A stretch of DNA of 63,961 nt, counting the filler, from Basidioascus undulatus (Eukaryota): assembly GCA_000826855.1 (NCBI GenBank). It is 3 parts of 3 records of this genome, joined end to end, with 100 filler letters (N's around TTAATTAATTAA, not from the genome) between each part and the next. Parts side by side here need not be neighbours in the genome. Positions count along the whole stretch, not along the records: positions 1 to 21,641 come from JTLS01000324.1; 2 more parts are not named here. The stretch is one strand, 5' to 3'. The position numbers were made by a program, and so were the translations under genes. The notes under the pieces were generated by a model, which saw nothing but the letters and a program-made list of their open reading frames with translations, made no database searches and was not told the origin of the DNA. Shown here piece by piece: positions 1,760 through 43,467 of the stretch. How positions within the stretch are numbered: the stretch's first letter is position 1; each line of letters starts with the position of its first letter.

Positions 1760-2584
1760 GCACTGTCGGGAGAGCCGTTTGGGATGTAGAGGCTGGTTGG
1801 CGCGGCGGTGGGTGGCCGAGAAGAGCGTATGGGTGGGGTGGGGGTGGGTGATGGTGGTTGTGAGATGAAGGGACGATGCGGGATGAGGTGAGATTCGCTG
1901 GATCTGTTTGCTTTTCTTGCGTTGCTGCGTTTGTGCGTTGCCTACGCGTTTGGACTGCTTGGCCTAGGAAGTCTTAATAACGTGTAACACCTTGACATTC
2001 CGGTTGTCAACCTGAAGCCATGTTCGTGACTTTCAGAACTCGTATTAGGTTTTCCAGCGGCGTAGGCGCTGTTTCCCGGTGCTAGTGGAGCGTTCCACGT
2101 TCCAACGCGACACATCACGCCGCCTTCTGGCGCCTCTATATTTGCTTTACGGCGGACCCAAACAAGGCTTCATTCATTTACTTCCGTCAAGTACGCCTTT
2201 ACAGTGCGCTGTCTTTTGTGGGTCGGCCGGTGTGGAGGCATTCCGGCCCCTTTCATCGTCGGCATCCAAACTTGAGGAGGATCAAGGTTCAAGCTCGCAA
2301 GCTCGACGAACGCGATCCGTCGTTCCCGCCTCCCTCGGCACTTGATACATCAAAGGATTCTTTCTGCTTCCCTTTCATTTCCAGGATACTCACTAACAGC
2401 GCGTTATCCACCCCTTTCAGCCACGCCCACCCAAGTCCTTGTGTCGTGTCCTCCCTCCGTTCCTCCCTATCGCCCCACCCTTCCCGGTCCCTACCTGCCG
2501 GAACAAGCAGATGATTAAGTCAGCCGACTCTTCTTCGAACGCTGTTGAGCATCAGGTTGCTGCACGGTGCATCCCTTCCTGGGA

Positions 2585-2591
2585 TATATAA
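2585..2591 (+). promoter_or_regulatory. TATA box (TATATAA) of the small CAAX peptide gene
   Basis: TATATAA about 115 nt upstream of ATG 2702, followed by a pyrimidine-rich leader. Confidence 0.55.
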
Positions 2592-2701
2592 GCAGCTCCT
2601 GCGCCGCCTCGCAGTCCTTGCAGCCTACAGCCGACTTTCACTTTCCACGTCCACTTCCAACCGCACAGCACTCTATCCCTCTCTATACGAGCCTCATCGC
2701 C

Positions 2702-2955
2702 ATGCAGCCTTCCGAGACCACCACCGCTGCTGCCCCCTACACCGCTGTCGCTGCCGACTGTGCCGTCGCTGTCGACGCCGGGAAGGCGCAGACGGGCACG
2801 CTCGTCGACGAGGAGAAGAACCCTCGTGAGTGTTGATGCCTACCCCTACCCCTTCTTGTTTTCTTAAACCTATCACACTCAATCCCAACCAACTCCCGCT
2901 CACGTGCCTATTTTCCCCAGAATACACCAACCCCGTGCAATGCATCGTCGCCTGA
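2702..2955 (+). CDS. 52-aa CAAX-box lipopeptide (mating pheromone-like) precursor; exons 2702-2825 and 2921-2955
   Basis: Removing intron 2826-2920 (GTGAGT...GCTCAC...TTTTCCCCAG) gives MQPSETTTAAAPYTAVAADCAVAVDAGKAQTGTLVDEEKNPQYTNPVQCIVA*. It has a C-terminal CIVA CAAX motif and an acidic/charged VDEEK site 10-11 residues before the Cys. Confidence 0.75.
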
Positions 2956-5900
2956 GACGCCGCACAGTGCCAGTGCCGCGCAGCCCGTGCGTGCTCTTTC
3001 CGTACCTCTCACGTTTTTTGCTGACATCCCGCCTCTCCCCCAAATCAGGAATGCGTCACCCCCCATTTCTACTCGTCTTTCGTCGACCTCTTCCTGTCGT
3101 CGTGTTGCCACATTCGCTTTCCTTCCCTTGGTTGCTCCCCTTTCGTTGTCCCGTGCGGGCAACATTGTTTGTTCTCTGGTCTAGGAAAGTGCGGTTGAGC
3201 TTGTTTTGTATAATACATTGTACTTGATTGCTTGCGAGCTTAGGCTCCTGCTGTGGCTGTCTTGGTTATGGCCTTTCGGTCATCGGTGCATGGAGGATTG
3301 CCGCGTGTAAAAGTGGTTATCTGTCAGCCCCTTACGAATGGAATACAAAAAAACACACTTCTGGTGACTCACCGCTTGTACTTGTAGCAGCTTGTGTTGC
3401 CAGCTGGCTGCTATGGTCAGTGCAGAAGACACCAAGCTACGCGCCGATGGCGGATATGCCCGCTTCAGAAACAGTGGGTCACTTTTCTTGAAGCATGTGC
3501 GAGAAACGGGAACAAACAGTGGAAACCCTCGGGTGAGCAGGTACGGGCAGGATAATCCCGAAATGGGCATAGCGAGTGTCTGCTCTCGAAGATAGGCGGC
3601 CAGCCAGCTCTCTAGCGATAAAGAGCAGTGAAATTGGTCCAGAACATGCTCAAAAGGACTGGATTAGAAGTGCCTTCTATAAAATGTCACTGCAGGAGGG
3701 AGCAACAAGAACTGATGAGGCTTGATGCTAATGGACGACCGAAGTGCAAGTCGAGATGTGCACAGCGGAACGCAGCAAAGAAAAAAAAGGGGCCCTGGGC
3801 CAGTTTTTAACAAACTCTCTACAAAAGAGGCTCAGAGGAAATTTCAAAATGAATCTGCGGTAGATAGGAGGGTGTGACCGCTGCTGCTGAAGCTTGCTAC
3901 TGGTTAACGCAGGCGTCTGCAACCGTGGTGCTCGATAAGGCCTTTCTTGCGTCCCTTTGTGAGCACAATGAAAGGTAATTCTTCCCTACCACCGTACCGA
4001 CCGCTTTCCCTCCCCCGCATCTTCTTCTTCTTTAGCTTCGCTACCCCTCTCACTACGTTTTTCTTCGAAGAAAAGCTGTGGGGGGAATTCTTTACCACAC
4101 AATATAAATGCGACACCTACTCCGTTTTGTGAAGCTAGCCGACAAGCAGACCGGATTGCGAATCTCGACTTCACGTCTGGCATGCCGAGTGTCGCAGTCT
4201 GCGCTCTGATTGCGTTCGGTTTCTGACCGGCGACACGACGTGATGAGCCCATCGAACAATGTAAGGAGCTTCCTTCGTACTGATGGCCACATAAACCTTC
4301 CAAAGTACTTCCCTTCGTCCCTCTCTTTCTTCAACAACCGCGGCCTTCCACCATCGCACCCATCCAGCGCATCGCGCGCCCGGCCGCTCCCCCTTTCCCC
4401 GCCGTACGCCATAACTACTCGACATGCCCAGCACCATGGTACTGGGAGAACCTCCCATGCCTTCGTATTGGATTAACCCACCGAGTAAGCATGCCGAGCG
4501 GTCCGCGGTTGCGGATAAGCTCGAGTGGGCGCTCAGTCGCTGCAAAGGCCGTCTCGGACGCCGCGTTCCGGGAACAGTGGGTCCGGACCCACGGCGCCTC
4601 CCGGCCGGGACATATTCAATCGGTTCAAGAGACTCAGCGGAGCAATGGTGCCGTGCAGAAGTGGGCGGAAGACCTGAAGGAGTGGGTGGTGGTGGATGTG
4701 CAAGGTGAGCTCGCAGCTTCGTCTTTCTCTGTGTTGTGTGCAAACGTGGTGATCCAATATCTTTGCACTTTGCCAGGGGCCGTATATAATCCAAGAGTCC
4801 TTTCCGGATAGTCTGGGCTCTCGTGAAACCGGATAACGCAAACGGCAGGCGTCACACCGGGCGCTCAAGATGCGATCCTGAATACGACTGTAACGAGTTT
4901 CTGAGGGTTGACCACATTATCCATAAGCATTAAATCATTTTTACAGTAAATTATGCTGGGGATATGTGGTGGGAATGATTGTCGTCTGTCTTAGAGAACA
5001 GCAGCATTGGAAGGAAGCATGAAGAAGCTAACACCGATGGAAACATGCACAAATTGTACTCAGCTCCATCCCCATCAGTAAATAAAGTGGCCGTACTCCA
5101 GATTTCTAAAATTCTAAAGCTTTGGTAAATTAGGTGTGGAGCTCAGGTGCACATAGCTGACTTTTGTTAGAATGGAGACAACTGACTGACAAAGACCTAC
5201 CCCTTCCCCCGTTTACCGGCCCCGAAAGATGCCCTCTGAGTCTTTCTCGGCTTCCCTACGGTACTGTGGAGTGAGGGTCCAGCCTTTAACAATCAATATC
5301 ACGATGGAAATACATACACCTCATCATATGTCTTTGGGATCTTTGACCAAACTAGCGAGGAGCGCTTCAGCAGCGCAGTTGATGGTTGCCCTGAACGTCT
5401 CGAGCTGCCACATCCCAGCATAGCACCCTTTCCGATCCGCGTCGTCCTCCCAGAACCAAGGCACTCCAAGTTGGCGCTCTTATGCCCTAGATATCTCCTC
5501 CATCTTGGCGCGTCAAAACGCTTGCTCGGGTTCATTGGCGAGGACGTCGGCTTCATCAACGTCGATTTCATCGGGCGCGACATCGACCGGCAAGAGATTG
5601 CTAACGAGGCAAACCACCGTGGGTTGGAGATCGTCGGTTCGAGCTCGCGCCTGTGCGCTCGTCCAATGTGGCCATCCAATAGACACTCGGAGATCTTGCC
5701 CTGCTCCGCTGTTACGACTGAATGATAAAGGAAGAATAGGCTAGAACTGTCACAAAGTGTTCTGGCGGGAGGCAGACGTTTTCCGGTCTTATGACCTGTT
5801 GCTTTCAATCATTTTTCTCTTCTCTGTGTAACTCTTGGGCCGAACGCCAAAGTTTGCGCTAGGCAGGGCGCGATGACTACATTGGGGAGCACCCTGCCAG

Positions 5901-6529
5901 CTCCAACCGATCGTATTAAGAACGCGCTCCCTGCCGTCTTGCACCTGTTCACATCTCTTCCATGGCCGTCCCGTCCCGTTCGCTTCTCACACGCCGTCCG
6001 CCAGATGTCATCAGATATTCTCCTGTGTTGAGCAAAATCTATCCGGTTGCAGAAAGAGAGCAGACTAGACTCAGAGCATGCGATAGATCGTGGCCGAGAG
6101 ACAAGAGCGAGTGTACAGTGTACAGCGGCGAGTCAAAAACAGCGGAACGACGGGCTAGCTACGAGGTACAGCGCCAAACTAGGTTCCGCCCTTAACTCGA
6201 TCCTGCCCCACAGCTGTTGAGCTTCCCCGCCATCAAGAGCTACGTCCTCGTCGTCCAACCCAACCTATCACGCGAGAGAATGCACATGGAAGACGAGAAA
6301 GGGAAATGATGATGGGGGATAAGGAAAGTGTGGGGTGGAGGGTGAGAAGAGAGTCGAAACAAAAAGGGAAATGAGGGGAACGAAGAAGGGAGGAAGGGGG
6401 GAGGGGGAAGGGGACGCCACGACAGGGTCTCGGCGTTGAAGTACGCGTCGGGGAGGGCGTGAGGATGGGGGCGTGGGGAAGAGGGATATGGTGAGGTGGA
6501 GGACGGTCGGTCGGGTCGGATGAGGCGCG

Positions 6530-6690
6530 GAGAGACGAAGTCGGCTGGCGGAGATGTGTGTAGAGCCAAGTTGGTCGAGTACGTATGCGCTGTCAAGGAC
6601 CTTGACCACCGTGTGCCCAACATCCCACTGCTCCCCCAGCTTCGCCGTCTTCCCCCGGCTTCCGCACATCCACAGATGCTCCCATCATGA
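6530..6690 (-). mobile_element. Possible degenerate Ty3/Gypsy integrase C-terminal fragment
   Basis: GKTAKLGEQWDVGHTVVKVLDSAYVLDQLGSTHISASRLR resembles the KL..xW.GPY.VV.VL..AY.L...(H/S)..RL pattern after Gypsy integrase cores. No RT, integrase core or LTR seen. Confidence 0.35.
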
Positions 6691-8079
6691 AACGGACGAC
6701 CGCGTCCATTCGGAGCGCAGGGAGGGACAGGCAAAAAGCGATCTACTCACACGAAGTCTGGCACGGATTGTGGAGAGAAGCAGAGAGGCGGCGCGCCCAG
6801 ACGACTACCCCATCGGCGCGACAGGGTAAGTCAAGTTCCAGTCTGAAACGGAGAGCGGCCTTCCGAGCATAAGAGCATCCAAATCACATGGACTGAGTCG
6901 CCCTGCGTCGGACCGCTTCCGCTAGACACTGCTCAGGAGCTCGCCCGGTCAGCCGCGCCTGATGCAGGTGGATAACCCGGGCATAGAAAACGACGCATCT
7001 CCAGAACCGACGCGGCTCGGAGGGGATAGACAGACAGACAGACAATATTATCGATGCAAGGGCGTCTAAAGAGAAGCGACACCTGGCTAAGAGCCCGTTC
7101 TGATGCATCATTTTGGAAAAGTGACGATCACTGCACCCGACATTTTGAGCTGTAGAAGTGTTGGAGCCTCACTTTGCAAGCTGCGCGCACACGAATGGCC
7201 TGATACTTTCCAGAAATGCTGGCCGAGTGGAGGCAAAAAGTGCCGCGAAGCGAGGGCAAGAGAGCACGAAGTGTCGACACTTCCCGGAAGTTCACCCCTC
7301 AGAGGTCAATCTCCTTGCCGCGGGCGACACTTCCAGAGAGTGTCGAGCCAGGATTCGAGCCAGCGACACACGGACGCATGCTCGCTGGAGGAAGTGTCGA
7401 CTTGAGTCGACACTTCGTTTCGCGCGGTAACTCCTGCAAAGTGTTGTTGCCGAACGAGCCCTAAGCTATCTAAACTAGAGAAGGCCAGTCGGCGGCAAAA
7501 TACAAGTGCGTTATGCGTTTGAAGATGCGGGAGGATGGTGCGAGAGAAAGCGAACTAATAGATCGTGCGGATATAGAGTGCGGATGGGGAGCGGGTGAAA
7601 AAAAAAATCAGAGCAGTATGGCTGTGTCCTCCTCCGCTTTCCATACCGACGCTGCCCACTTCCCAACAATCCCGCACGTCTTCCCACCCCGGACCAGGCG
7701 CTGCAGCGTCCCGGTCCGGTCAATCCGCCGCCAGTCCCCTCCAGTCCCGCTACACTCCGTCAATAACGCGGAAGGCCGCCTCCTGCAGCGCCGCGAGGCG
7801 CGCTTGCGTGCACCCGAAGAAGGCGTGAGCCTCGTCCTCCACCATCTCACATCCTCGGCGGCAGCCGCGCTCGCTAGGGGAGGACAGGGAGTGCTGACTC
7901 GACGACGCGTCGAGGCGGAGGAAGAACCGCGCGCGAGGCGCGAGGCGCGCCCTACGCGCTCTGCCGTCGGCTATCGAGTTCCAACTCTTTACCTCTTACC
8001 ACCTTGTAGCACTTTGTACCACCGTGCTACCTCCAGATCGCCATATTTCTTCCCAACAACAGTCAATTTTCATACCATC

Positions 8080-19072: not shown

Positions 19073-21293
19073 TCAAGGGAATGCGAATCCGCACCTCCTC
19101 GGGAGGCGGGCAAGGCAAGAACGGCCAAAGCGTGTCGAGGAAAAAAAGAAAGAAAAGAAAGAAGAAAGCGGGAAAAGGGGGGAGAGGAGGGGAGGGCGAG
19201 AGACCTCCCACCACCCCCTCCCCTGAGCCGCGTCTCTCCAGCCGGCCCAGACGCCGGTGCCCCTGCGGCTAGCGGGGCTGCCGGCAGAGTTGGGCGTAAC
19301 AGGCTCGTACCTGCTCGCCGTCTCACTGGGCGTCCCCGGCTGGGGGGGCCCAAAGTCATCCTCGTCCTCGCTCGTGCTCTCGAGCTGCTCCTCCTCCTCC
19401 ACGCGGGACGTCCGCGTCCCCGCCCCGCGCTGGTAGCTCCCAAAGGACGAGGACTCGCCCGCGTGCTGGCCGAACGAGCCCGCCCAGGACAAGGCGGAGG
19501 AGGACTTAGAGTGCCCGCTGCTGGAGGAGGAGCCGTTTCCGGAGCGGCTGGCGCGCGAGCGGTGGGAGGAGGATTGGGAGGGGTCTTTGGACCGCCGCGA
19601 ACGGGAGGAGCCCGCGCGCGAGGGGGGGATGGAGGTGTATTTGGATTGTTGGGAGCTGAGGGAACTGCGGAGGTGGGAAGGGGTCGTTAGTGCCTGGAAG
19701 GAAGTTGGGGTGTGGGGGGGGGGGAAGAAGGGCAGAAACGCACCCAATGCTCCCGCTCCCGAACCGCATGCTCCCCCTCGCGCTCTTGATGCTCTTCGCG
19801 CGGCGGTACTCCGCCGCCCCGGCACCCGTCAAGCTCTCGATCTCGCCCGAGCTCGACTGTCCGAGCGTGAGCGTGCGCGCATGCCCATGCTTGAATAGCA
19901 CGGGCGTGGCCGTGCCCACCTCAGCATGCTCGACGCTGCGGTCCTCCATCGAGCCCGACGCGCTGCGCTCGCTGTACAGGCTCCGCTTGGACGCGCCGCT
20001 GCCGCTGCCGGATCCGTTGGTGGATGGGAAGCTGGGGAACGGGGGCGGAGCGAGGCCGGGCGGGGCGCCTGCCTGCCTCGGCAGCGGGAGCGCGGGGACG
20101 GGCGGCGGGGGTGTGCCGGACGTAGAGGCGTAGCTGAGGGGCGTGGACGAGGCGGGGGTCGGCGGCGCAGTCAGAAACGGGTTGCTCCCGCTTCCGCCGT
20201 GTCTGAGCCCGAGCCCAATCTGCGCGAGCGGGCTCGAGCGGTTCGGGTCGAGCGATGCCCCGCTGCGCTCACGCTCGCGCATCAGGAACGGGGCGTCCTC
20301 GCCCGGGACCTCAGAGTCCTCGGGGAGGGGGATCGGGCGCCGCGGGGCCTCGAAGAAGAGCGTGTGGTCTGGCCGCTCGGAGGAAGAGGCGTATGACGTA
20401 GTGGAGCGCGAGTTCTGGGACGAGTTGGGGTACGACGGGGCGAGGGGCGGGATGCTGGGAAGCGCAGTCGCCCCACGGTGCTGAGGGAGGAGCGGCGACG
20501 AGATGTGACGCGCGTGGCCAGGCGCGCCGTTACGCGTGGGCGTGCCGGGTTGAGAAACATTCTCGATCAGGGATCGTCGCTCAGCCATGTCCCGCGTGCC
20601 GTGCCCGTACGCCCGCCCATCGTCGTCGCTCGCCCGCTGACGGCACGCCGCAGCGGCGAGGATCGCCCCAACCAGGGGGACGCCCCAGAGCCCGGCGCCG
20701 GGCGCGGACGACGCGCGCCCGTACGCAGCCACGTCGTCGTCCGACGGGTGCGAACCCAGATGGGAGGACGTCACTGCCGCTGCTGCTGCGCGCCGGCGGC
20801 GCCGCCGGAGGAAGAGGCATGCGAAGAGGAGGAGCAGGAGCAGGAAAAGCCCGCCGAGAACGGTGGAGAGGACTATGGCGCGGATCTGGGAGCCGGTGAG
20901 GCCGGAGGAGGAGGAGGAGGGTTGCAGGGACGACGTGGAGGAGGGCGTGCTTGTAGGGGTGGAGGAGAGGGACGAGGATGATGAAGAGGAGGTCGAGGAG
21001 GTTGAGGACGAGGTGGTTGTGGAGGGTGTTGAGGATGAAGAGGAGGCGGATGAGCTCGTGTACGCGGACGAAGGCGACTGGGTCGAAGCGCTCGACTCGA
21101 TGCTCGGCGTCGCCGTTGGGCTCGTGCTCCCACCGTACACCCACCCATCGCCCAGACTGACGTCCCCCGCCCCGTAGTACGTGAGAGGCAGGTAGACGAC
21201 CGTGTACGCCTCGTTCCCCGGGAGGAGCGAGTAGGACAGGTAATCGGGGAGCTCCTGGGCGGGGAGGGCGGGTGCGGCGGTCGAAGAGGACAT
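19073..21293 (-). CDS. Ser/Thr-rich single-pass membrane protein (Mid2/Wsc-like architecture); 3' end uncertain
   Basis: N-terminal LPLTYYG...GWVYGGSTSP, long Ser/Thr tract, TM helix AIVLSTVLGGLFLLLLLLFACLFL followed by RRRRRR, disordered tail; one intron near 19652-19743. Confidence 0.7.
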
Positions 21294-21641
21294 TGTTGGA
21301 GAGCGGACGAGGGTAAGGGAGGCTTTGGGACTGTGTGGCATGGGAGGCGGGAAGGGTCAGTGGGAATGGATGGAGGGGAACTCGTCGAGGGTGGACAGCG
21401 GGTTGTGTCGGGCAGCACGGCGACCTGACAGCACCCGCTCGCACAGCATTCCTCCGCCTCCGGTGTGCAGCGACTCACCAGGCAGTGTAACTATTCCACT
21501 CCAATGCGTCCGTGTTTTTTATATCCAAAGGTTAGAGGGCGACGCAAGCAAGCCTCCGGGGCGTGCTGGGTCGTAGAGTCGTCGTGAGTCGGTTGGGTCG
21601 TAAAGTCGTTAGGGGGCAGCAAGCGAGCAGAGCGGGTGTGG

Positions 21642-21741
21642 NNNNNNNNNNNNNNNNNNNNNNNNNNNNNNNNNNNNNNNNNNNNTTAATTAATTAANNN
21701 NNNNNNNNNNNNNNNNNNNNNNNNNNNNNNNNNNNNNNNNN
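21642..21741. other. Artificial contig spacer (N44-TTAATTAATTAA-N44)
   Basis: Exactly 100 nt with a 12-mer giving stops in all six frames; identical to 43368-43467. Confidence 0.97.
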
Positions 21742-43367: not shown

Positions 43368-43467
43368 NNNNNNNNNNNNNNNNNNNNNNNNNNNNNNNNN
43401 NNNNNNNNNNNTTAATTAATTAANNNNNNNNNNNNNNNNNNNNNNNNNNNNNNNNNNNNNNNNNNNN
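43368..43467. other. Artificial contig spacer (N44-TTAATTAATTAA-N44)
   Basis: Same 100-nt construct as 21642-21741. Confidence 0.97.

Follow-up and report, generated by a model that had tools for sequence, protein, structure and literature searches.

The lipopeptide pheromones of basidiomycetes are made from precursors of 40-100 amino acids (aa), which end in a CAAX box (cysteine, two aliphatic residues and a last residue X) and carry a pair of charged residues that lies 10-15 aa before the C-terminus (PMC5100862). Pheromone-like precursors have also been described, with lengths of 44-54 aa, ER, DR, EH, NH, EE or DE motifs and mature parts predicted to span 11-13 aa; in Agaricus bisporus four genes for such precursors are scattered away from the receptors, and at least three are expressed, all three with a 3' untranslated region (3'UTR) that contains an intron (PMC8305134). 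The biogenesis of a-factor comprises farnesylation, removal of the AAX residues, methylation, a two-step trimming of the N-terminus and export by an ATP-binding cassette (ABC) transporter (PMC2134810). We report a candidate gene of this kind in Basidioascus undulatus (NCBI GenBank assembly GCA_000826855.1), found in a window (the whole stretch of DNA analysed) of 63,961 nt, filler included, which consists of three joined parts, all of them covered by every statement made below about the window. As judged from its sequence, the locus, at positions 2585-3240 on the plus strand, is very probably a real spliced gene, as yet unannotated, and we lean towards reading its predicted 52-aa product as the precursor of an a-factor-type lipopeptide.

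By their short length and rapid evolution, lipopeptide pheromone genes are beyond the reach of homology searches; they are routinely absent from the annotations of fungi (PMC10282164). Introns have been described in genes of the a-factor type, namely the Schizosaccharomyces pombe M-factor and YlMFA4 of Yarrowia lipolytica, and since an intron interrupts the short open reading frame (ORF), such genes are overlooked by stop-to-start ORF screens, as described for these cases (bioRxiv 10.1101/2021.09.28.462209). As to position relative to the receptor gene STE3, the pheromone candidates of Wallemia ichthyophaga, ending in CIIV and CIIT, are described as lying beside it (PMC6738226), and the homothallic Cryptococcus depauperatus is reported to have a single MF gene on another chromosome than STE3 (PMC9296135).

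Our gene model was obtained by direct reading of positions 2200-3500 together with scripted slicing of the window. A TATA box, TATATAA, is read at 2585-2591 (+), 117 nt 5' of the ATG; this heptamer has three sites in the whole window, two on the plus and one on the minus strand, one of which lies 5' of the candidate ATG on the correct strand. The CT-rich and ATG-free segment that follows, 2592-2701 (+), would hold the core promoter and the 5' untranslated region, and the first ATG after the TATATAA is at 2702, with a G at -3. Coding exon 1, at 2702-2825 (+), is defined by reading, slicing and codon score and encodes 41 residues (ORF P0001, ending ..VDEEKNP) and supplies one base, the first, to a split codon. 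The predicted intron 1, at 2826-2920 (+), is 95 nt long and of phase 1; it begins with GTGAGT, has a branch-like GCTCAC at 2898-2903, 18 nt from its 3' end, and runs through a pyrimidine tract to CAG, the 3' end reading ttttccccAG. Coding exon 2, at 2921-2955 (+) by reading and slicing, completes the split codon C|AA as Q and continues with YTNPVQCIVA and the stop codon TGA (2953-2955). The motif scan places the CAAX box CIVA, a predicted farnesylation site, at 2941-2952 (+), so that box and stop codon together occupy 2941-2955. An Ala in the X position of a CAAX box directs farnesylation.

Downstream of the stop codon, 31 nt (2956-2986, +) would form the first part of the 3'UTR, and a second, 62-nt intron is predicted at 2987-3048 (+) from the splice consensus described below (GTGCGT, GCTGAC at 3020-3025, CAG); because it starts 31 nt past the stop codon, this intron would lie within the 3'UTR. 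The remainder, 3049-3240 (+), is pyrimidine-rich and, in a codon-score scan, free of coding-like segments; we assign it to the second part of the 3'UTR, with a 3' end that is a guess. The initial annotation of this DNA, which had described the TATA box, the ATG, a canonical 95-nt intron and a CAAX box on exon 2, agrees with our reading in all its coordinates, and slicing reproduces the spliced 52-aa peptide, ending DEEK-NPQYTNPVQ-CIVA, that it had given. Its remark that the unspliced ORF track overlooks the gene also holds: the unspliced ORF has 44 aa and is stopped by an in-frame TGA at 2834-2836, 8 nt into intron 1, and since the frame ends inside this intron, the CAAX end on exon 2 is invisible in the ORF list. 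The end coordinate of that annotation, 3048, is the 3' end of the predicted 3'UTR intron, which it left unmentioned. The predicted product begins with MQPS followed by a Thr/Ala-rich stretch (2702-2740), and the N-terminus of P0001, judged by inspection, is neutral to acidic with an Ala/Val stretch that is broken by Asp.

Coding character was measured with a codon log-likelihood model trained on the Pfam-supported exons of the window. The spliced coding sequence scores +20.1 bits in frame, or +0.386 bit per codon, while the other five frames score from -0.05 to -31, and one frame is favoured by both exons, exon 1 scoring +15.8 bits over its 41 codons and exon 2 +5.6 bits over 10 codons. This per-codon score is reached by only 4 of the 194 ATG-initiated ORFs of 40-70 codons in the window, and when 1532 stop-to-stop ORFs are ranked by coding score the exon 1 segment takes 69th place, at a level similar to that of the ARP3 exons. 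The enolase gene of the same window has six introns of 65-88 nt, with GTGCGT or GTGCGC at the start, GCTGA[CT] and a final CAG, and the motifs of the intron at 2987-3048 are exactly of this form. The window contains 24 introns of such a house style, where simulations give 5.9 +/- 2.7, a comparison made with a pattern partly tuned on the locus; two of the 24 are the candidate pair, which share a strand and stand 66 nt apart. Annotation-free intron calling, which is noisy, returns GTGCGT and GTACGT as the dominant forms and GTGAGT as well, the latter in five of the candidates listed. Codon bias, the TATA box and the second house-style intron are further gene signals that are largely independent.

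A CaaX-stop by itself is no more than chance in this window. There are 121 C-x-x-x-stop sites in its six frames, the a1 and a2 residues are strictly aliphatic in 10 of them, and among these 10 CIVA is the only one with X among A, S, M, Q and C. We defined a composite feature, an ATG-initiated ORF joined through an intron to an in-frame CaaX-stop with a total length of 30-100 aa, and counted it in the real window and in Markov-2 simulated windows as control. The composite has a single occurrence in the real window, which is the candidate gene. With loose GT..AG rules it arises in 12 of 60 simulations for a farnesyl-type X and in 27 of 60 for any X; with the strict house-style intron pattern it arises in none of 60; and with the generic fungal consensus GTRNGT..CTNAY..YAG it arises in 3 of 200 (farnesyl X) and 8 of 200 (any X). 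This last control was untuned on the candidate and gives the fair, unbiased figure.

The features of the predicted product accord with those of lipopeptide precursors. At 52 aa it falls within the range of basidiomycete precursors (about 35-100 aa), it ends in CIVA, and the residues D-E-E-K stand 17-14 places from its C-terminus, EE being among the motifs given in PMC8305134. The pheromone-like identity that the initial annotation had proposed is thus upheld in so far as length, CAAX box and charged residues fit the published definition; the role as a pheromone is one that we infer. On the reading that we favour, the locus would be transcribed by RNA polymerase II from a TATA promoter, its coding sequence would be divided into two exons by the 95-nt phase-1 intron, and its 3'UTR would hold another intron. 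By analogy with the a-factor pathway, Cys49 of the CIVA box would be farnesylated, a CAAX protease would trim the last three residues, and the new C-terminal Cys would be carboxymethylated. The acidic N-terminal extension, which by inspection seems to be without signal-peptide character, would be cleaved near the EEK(N) cluster to leave a mature farnesylated product, ..PQYTNPVQC-farnesyl-OMe, some 9-11 residues in length, which a Ste6-type ABC transporter would export and a Ste3-type G-protein-coupled receptor would sense. Such a peptide may serve as a mating-type pheromone whose receptor gene lies shortly beyond the window's left end, or as a pheromone-like signal unlinked to a receptor. In a bolder version, which we hold to be rather unlikely, it would be an autocrine or non-mating orphan lipopeptide (developmental or quorum-like), encoded by an intron-split gene truly unlinked to Ste3, with a mature sequence unlike the described pheromone classes and from a deep, unsampled basidiomycete lineage.

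A number of observations weigh against reading the product as an a-factor-type precursor, and we set them out together. The strict intron pattern had been widened to admit the GTGAGT and CTCAC of intron 1, which makes two of the controls partly circular, and the composite is expected in about 1.5-4% of windows of this kind, a rate that is non-negligible over many windows, so that the composite alone is insufficient. In yeasts, CAAX-ORF screens are described as leaving 10-300 false candidates per species after a conservation filter (bioRxiv 10.1101/2021.09.28.462209). The candidate starts with MQPS where the agaricomycete precursors start with MD(S/A)F, and its predicted mature part is rich in N, P, Q, T and Y, with no Gly in the exon 2 part YTNPVQC, where the consensus of the known agaricomycete non-mating-type peptides, as given in the same source, is the G-rich GGGSGN(G/N)AYC (PMC8305134). 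Of the 280 stop-to-stop ORFs in the window with a length of 100 aa or more, a Pfam scan took in 271 (2 of them shortened, while 9 that overlapped N runs were omitted); it also covered all 265 ORFs of 70-99 aa and 68 ORFs of 35-69 aa at 1900-7700, and among the scanned ORFs it returned neither STE3 (PF02076) nor a homeodomain. A tblastn search of the spliced peptide against the window finds only the peptide itself and thus no second copy; as real pheromone genes are often multicopy, a single copy in the window counts against the assignment. Sites like the pheromone response element (PRE), ACAAAGGGA, occur 11 times against 11.2 expected, which is the level of chance.

The searches outside the window, in which exon 1 and the exon 2 ORF were separate queries, add to these observations. 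Exon 1 (P0001, 41 aa) has no homologue in a word-indexed search of proteins of 22-72 aa and 0 matches at E <= 0.001 in a HMMER search of 1.84 billion representatives, and the stop-to-stop ORF of exon 2 (2830-2952) likewise has no homologue. At E-values up to 10, Pfam contains no family for exon 1, for the in-frame ORF 2549-2833 or for the exon 2 ORF, and in the ESM Atlas the best score is 0.76, under the useful level. The degenerate pattern NPVQC[IV][IV]A-stop is matched in metagenomes by two near-identical AT-rich contigs (L001 at 1501-1527 on the minus strand and L002 at 1501-1527 on the plus strand), in which an ORF ends ..NPVQCIIA-stop; it has no upstream similarity to the window and was judged to be a chance match. 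The best matches of the HIS7 ORF of the window are to Wallemia (64-65% identity), Tremellomycetes (58-64%) and Agaricomycetes (56-63%), none above 66%, by which measure the host is a basidiomycete without a close relative in the protein collection, and it is for want of such a relative that the comparative tests came up empty.

Other accounts of the locus have to be weighed against a secreted lipopeptide. The product might be prenylated and yet remain in the cell as a membrane-anchored micro-protein, which would explain the gene-like signals equally well and would sit easily with the missing MD(S/A)F start and with window scans that show no receptor, transporter or paralogue nearby. We consider this unlikely, since length, acidic pro-region and a charged cluster 14-16 residues from the end make up the layout of a precursor and no Pfam family, that of the G-protein gamma subunit (G-gamma) included, is found on either exon at E-values up to 10. 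To our knowledge, moreover, the small CAAX proteins of fungi are a-factor-type pheromones and G-gamma subunits, which also speaks against an intracellular micro-protein. To the G-gamma subunit of a heterotrimeric G protein we give very little credence. It would share with the candidate its small size, its CAAX end and an NP motif placed some 10 residues ahead of the Cys, which we take to resemble G-gamma tails, but neither PF00631 nor any other Pfam model matches at E up to 10, exon 1 accounting for 41 of the 52 residues, and the N-terminal part is Ala/Thr/Val-rich and acidic, unlike a charged coiled-coil. Known G-gamma subunits are, in addition, longer than 52 aa.

A further account accepts the transcript and holds the CaaX to be coincidental or unused; the peptide would then be a micro-protein peculiar to the lineage, or would stem from a short ORF within a spliced, largely non-coding RNA. 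Neither exon has a homologue, the locus lies in a 5.5-kb stretch without a recognisable gene, and with 10 CaaX-stops in the window the motif is a common one; against this, the frame-specific codon bias spans both exons, the 5' splice site lies 8 nt before the unspliced stop so that splicing reopens the frame to the CAAX end, and by a rough estimate a C-aliphatic-aliphatic-[ASMQC] end would arise by chance at most about once in 1000 real ORFs. An unused CaaX seems to us slightly less likely still than an intracellular micro-protein, and the absence of any gene, with the ORF, the GT..AG pairs, the A/T-rich heptamer and the CaaX-stop coinciding in GC-rich DNA, is improbable to a somewhat greater degree. 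Pure coincidence draws on the frequency of the composite in simulations with loose splice rules (12/60 to 27/60) and with the generic consensus (3-8 of 200), and on a complete lack of comparative support in the exon searches; it leaves the codon bias, the TATA box and the same-strand second house-style intron to be accounted for, as well as the failure of the strict composite to appear in any of the 60 simulations.

The candidate gene lies 0.8 kb downstream of ARP3, which is identified by its match to PDB Arp3 chains (E 9e-60, against 2e-24 for actin). The genes of the window recognised by Pfam are ARP3, a GATase-domain gene, MOSC, a D-serine-dehydratase-like gene, one protein kinase, enolase, HIS7, a Mem_trans transporter, an alpha/beta hydrolase, GRAM/VASt, a palmitoyl-protein thioesterase, WD40 and a PH_3-domain gene. 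The kinase was considered as STE20 or STE11, and both identities are excluded, as it is of the AGC type and nearest to PKC, PKN, Sgk and Akt; the statement in the initial annotation that no STE20 is visible is therefore borne out for the window. That annotation had also seen no receptor gene nearby, which is correct for the window, with no match to STE3 or a homeodomain in the scanned ORFs over 2.7 kb to the left and 61 kb to the right of the gene, and is left uncertain leftward, where 2.7 kb are visible. With so short a left flank, a receptor upstream of ARP3 is compatible with the data, and it is unproven that the gene is unlinked to any receptor.

In the 5.5-kb stretch around the locus that lacks a recognisable gene, about 4.3 kb (3250-7500) lie 3' of the candidate, with no Pfam-recognisable gene on either strand and a lower GC content of 0.53-0.54. 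A coding-like segment of 31.9 bits is found at 5492-5635 (+), inside an ORF at 5240-5722 (P0122) that belongs to no family, and the sole perfect smut-type PRE (ACAAAGGGA) of the window is at 3952-3960 (-). Rfam gives no match at 1900-7600, and neither intron therefore holds a known small nucleolar RNA. Farther along the window, a 616-codon open frame without a Pfam family occupies 19509-21356 (-), in the most GC-rich part (0.62-0.66), where many long ORFs overlap on both strands; it may represent a low-complexity protein or an artefact of high GC. Four N runs, each exactly 44 letters long, occur at 21642-21685, 21698-21741, 43368-43411 and 43424-43467, as two pairs whose members are 12 nt apart, the second pair falling within the GRAM/VASt gene; they resemble masked sequence more than gaps of the assembly.

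Should the product prove to be a lipopeptide precursor, it would be the first candidate pheromone for a lineage without a close sequenced relative, and would supply a peptide sequence for synthesis and for assay on the Ste3-type receptors of the host. With its CAAX box on a second exon, the gene also slips through screens for short ORFs that end in CaaX. Confirmation would reveal if the pheromone gene is linked to its receptor or not, which bears on a heterothallic, homothallic or non-mating use of the signal. Current concepts are unchanged by such a gene, as unlinked pheromone-like genes and intron-split pheromone genes have already been described, as far as these sources relate (PMC8305134, PMC9296135, bioRxiv 10.1101/2021.09.28.462209).

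Among the systems described so far, the pheromone-like genes of Agaricus share with the candidate a short precursor, the CAAX box, the spacing of the charged motif and the 3'UTR intron, predicted here at 2987-3048, and they lie away from a receptor gene, as the candidate does within the window; an intron in the coding region is predicted in the candidate, unlike in the Agaricus genes as that report describes them (PMC8305134). The precursors of basidiomycete pheromone/receptor (P/R) loci agree with it in length, CAAX box, acidic pro-region and charged residues 10-16 aa from the C-terminus (PMC5100862). As P/R-locus precursors are without sequence conservation between lineages, the absence of a homologue is to be expected. 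Their genes are described as lying a few kb from STE3 and as usually multicopy, whereas the candidate has neither close STE3 linkage (2.7 kb being visible on its left) nor additional copies in the window.

The a-factor genes MFA1 and MFA2 of Saccharomyces cerevisiae resemble the candidate in being laid out as an N-terminal extension, which in yeast is without a signal sequence, a mature part of 10-12 residues and the CAAX box (PMC2134810). They belong to another phylum, with no detectable homology, and the 52-aa candidate precursor is longer. The S. cerevisiae a-factor precursors open with MQPS and a stretch rich in Thr and Ala, and their cleavage site follows an Asn behind a charged cluster. 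The likeness of the candidate's MQPS to this start is probably a coincidence.

The MF gene of C. depauperatus is, as reported, a precedent for a lone, receptor-unlinked pheromone gene in self-signalling; it encodes 37 aa, is a recognisable homologue of Cryptococcus MF and has been functionally tested, whereas the candidate is known from its sequence alone (PMC9296135). YlMFA4 was recognised by way of paralogues that have no intron, and a quadruple deletion gave the proof, while the candidate, which has no paralogue in the window, is a prediction from DNA. In both the S. pombe M-factor and YlMFA4, as in the candidate gene, an intron breaks the short ORF and was identified through the splice consensus typical of the species (bioRxiv 10.1101/2021.09.28.462209).

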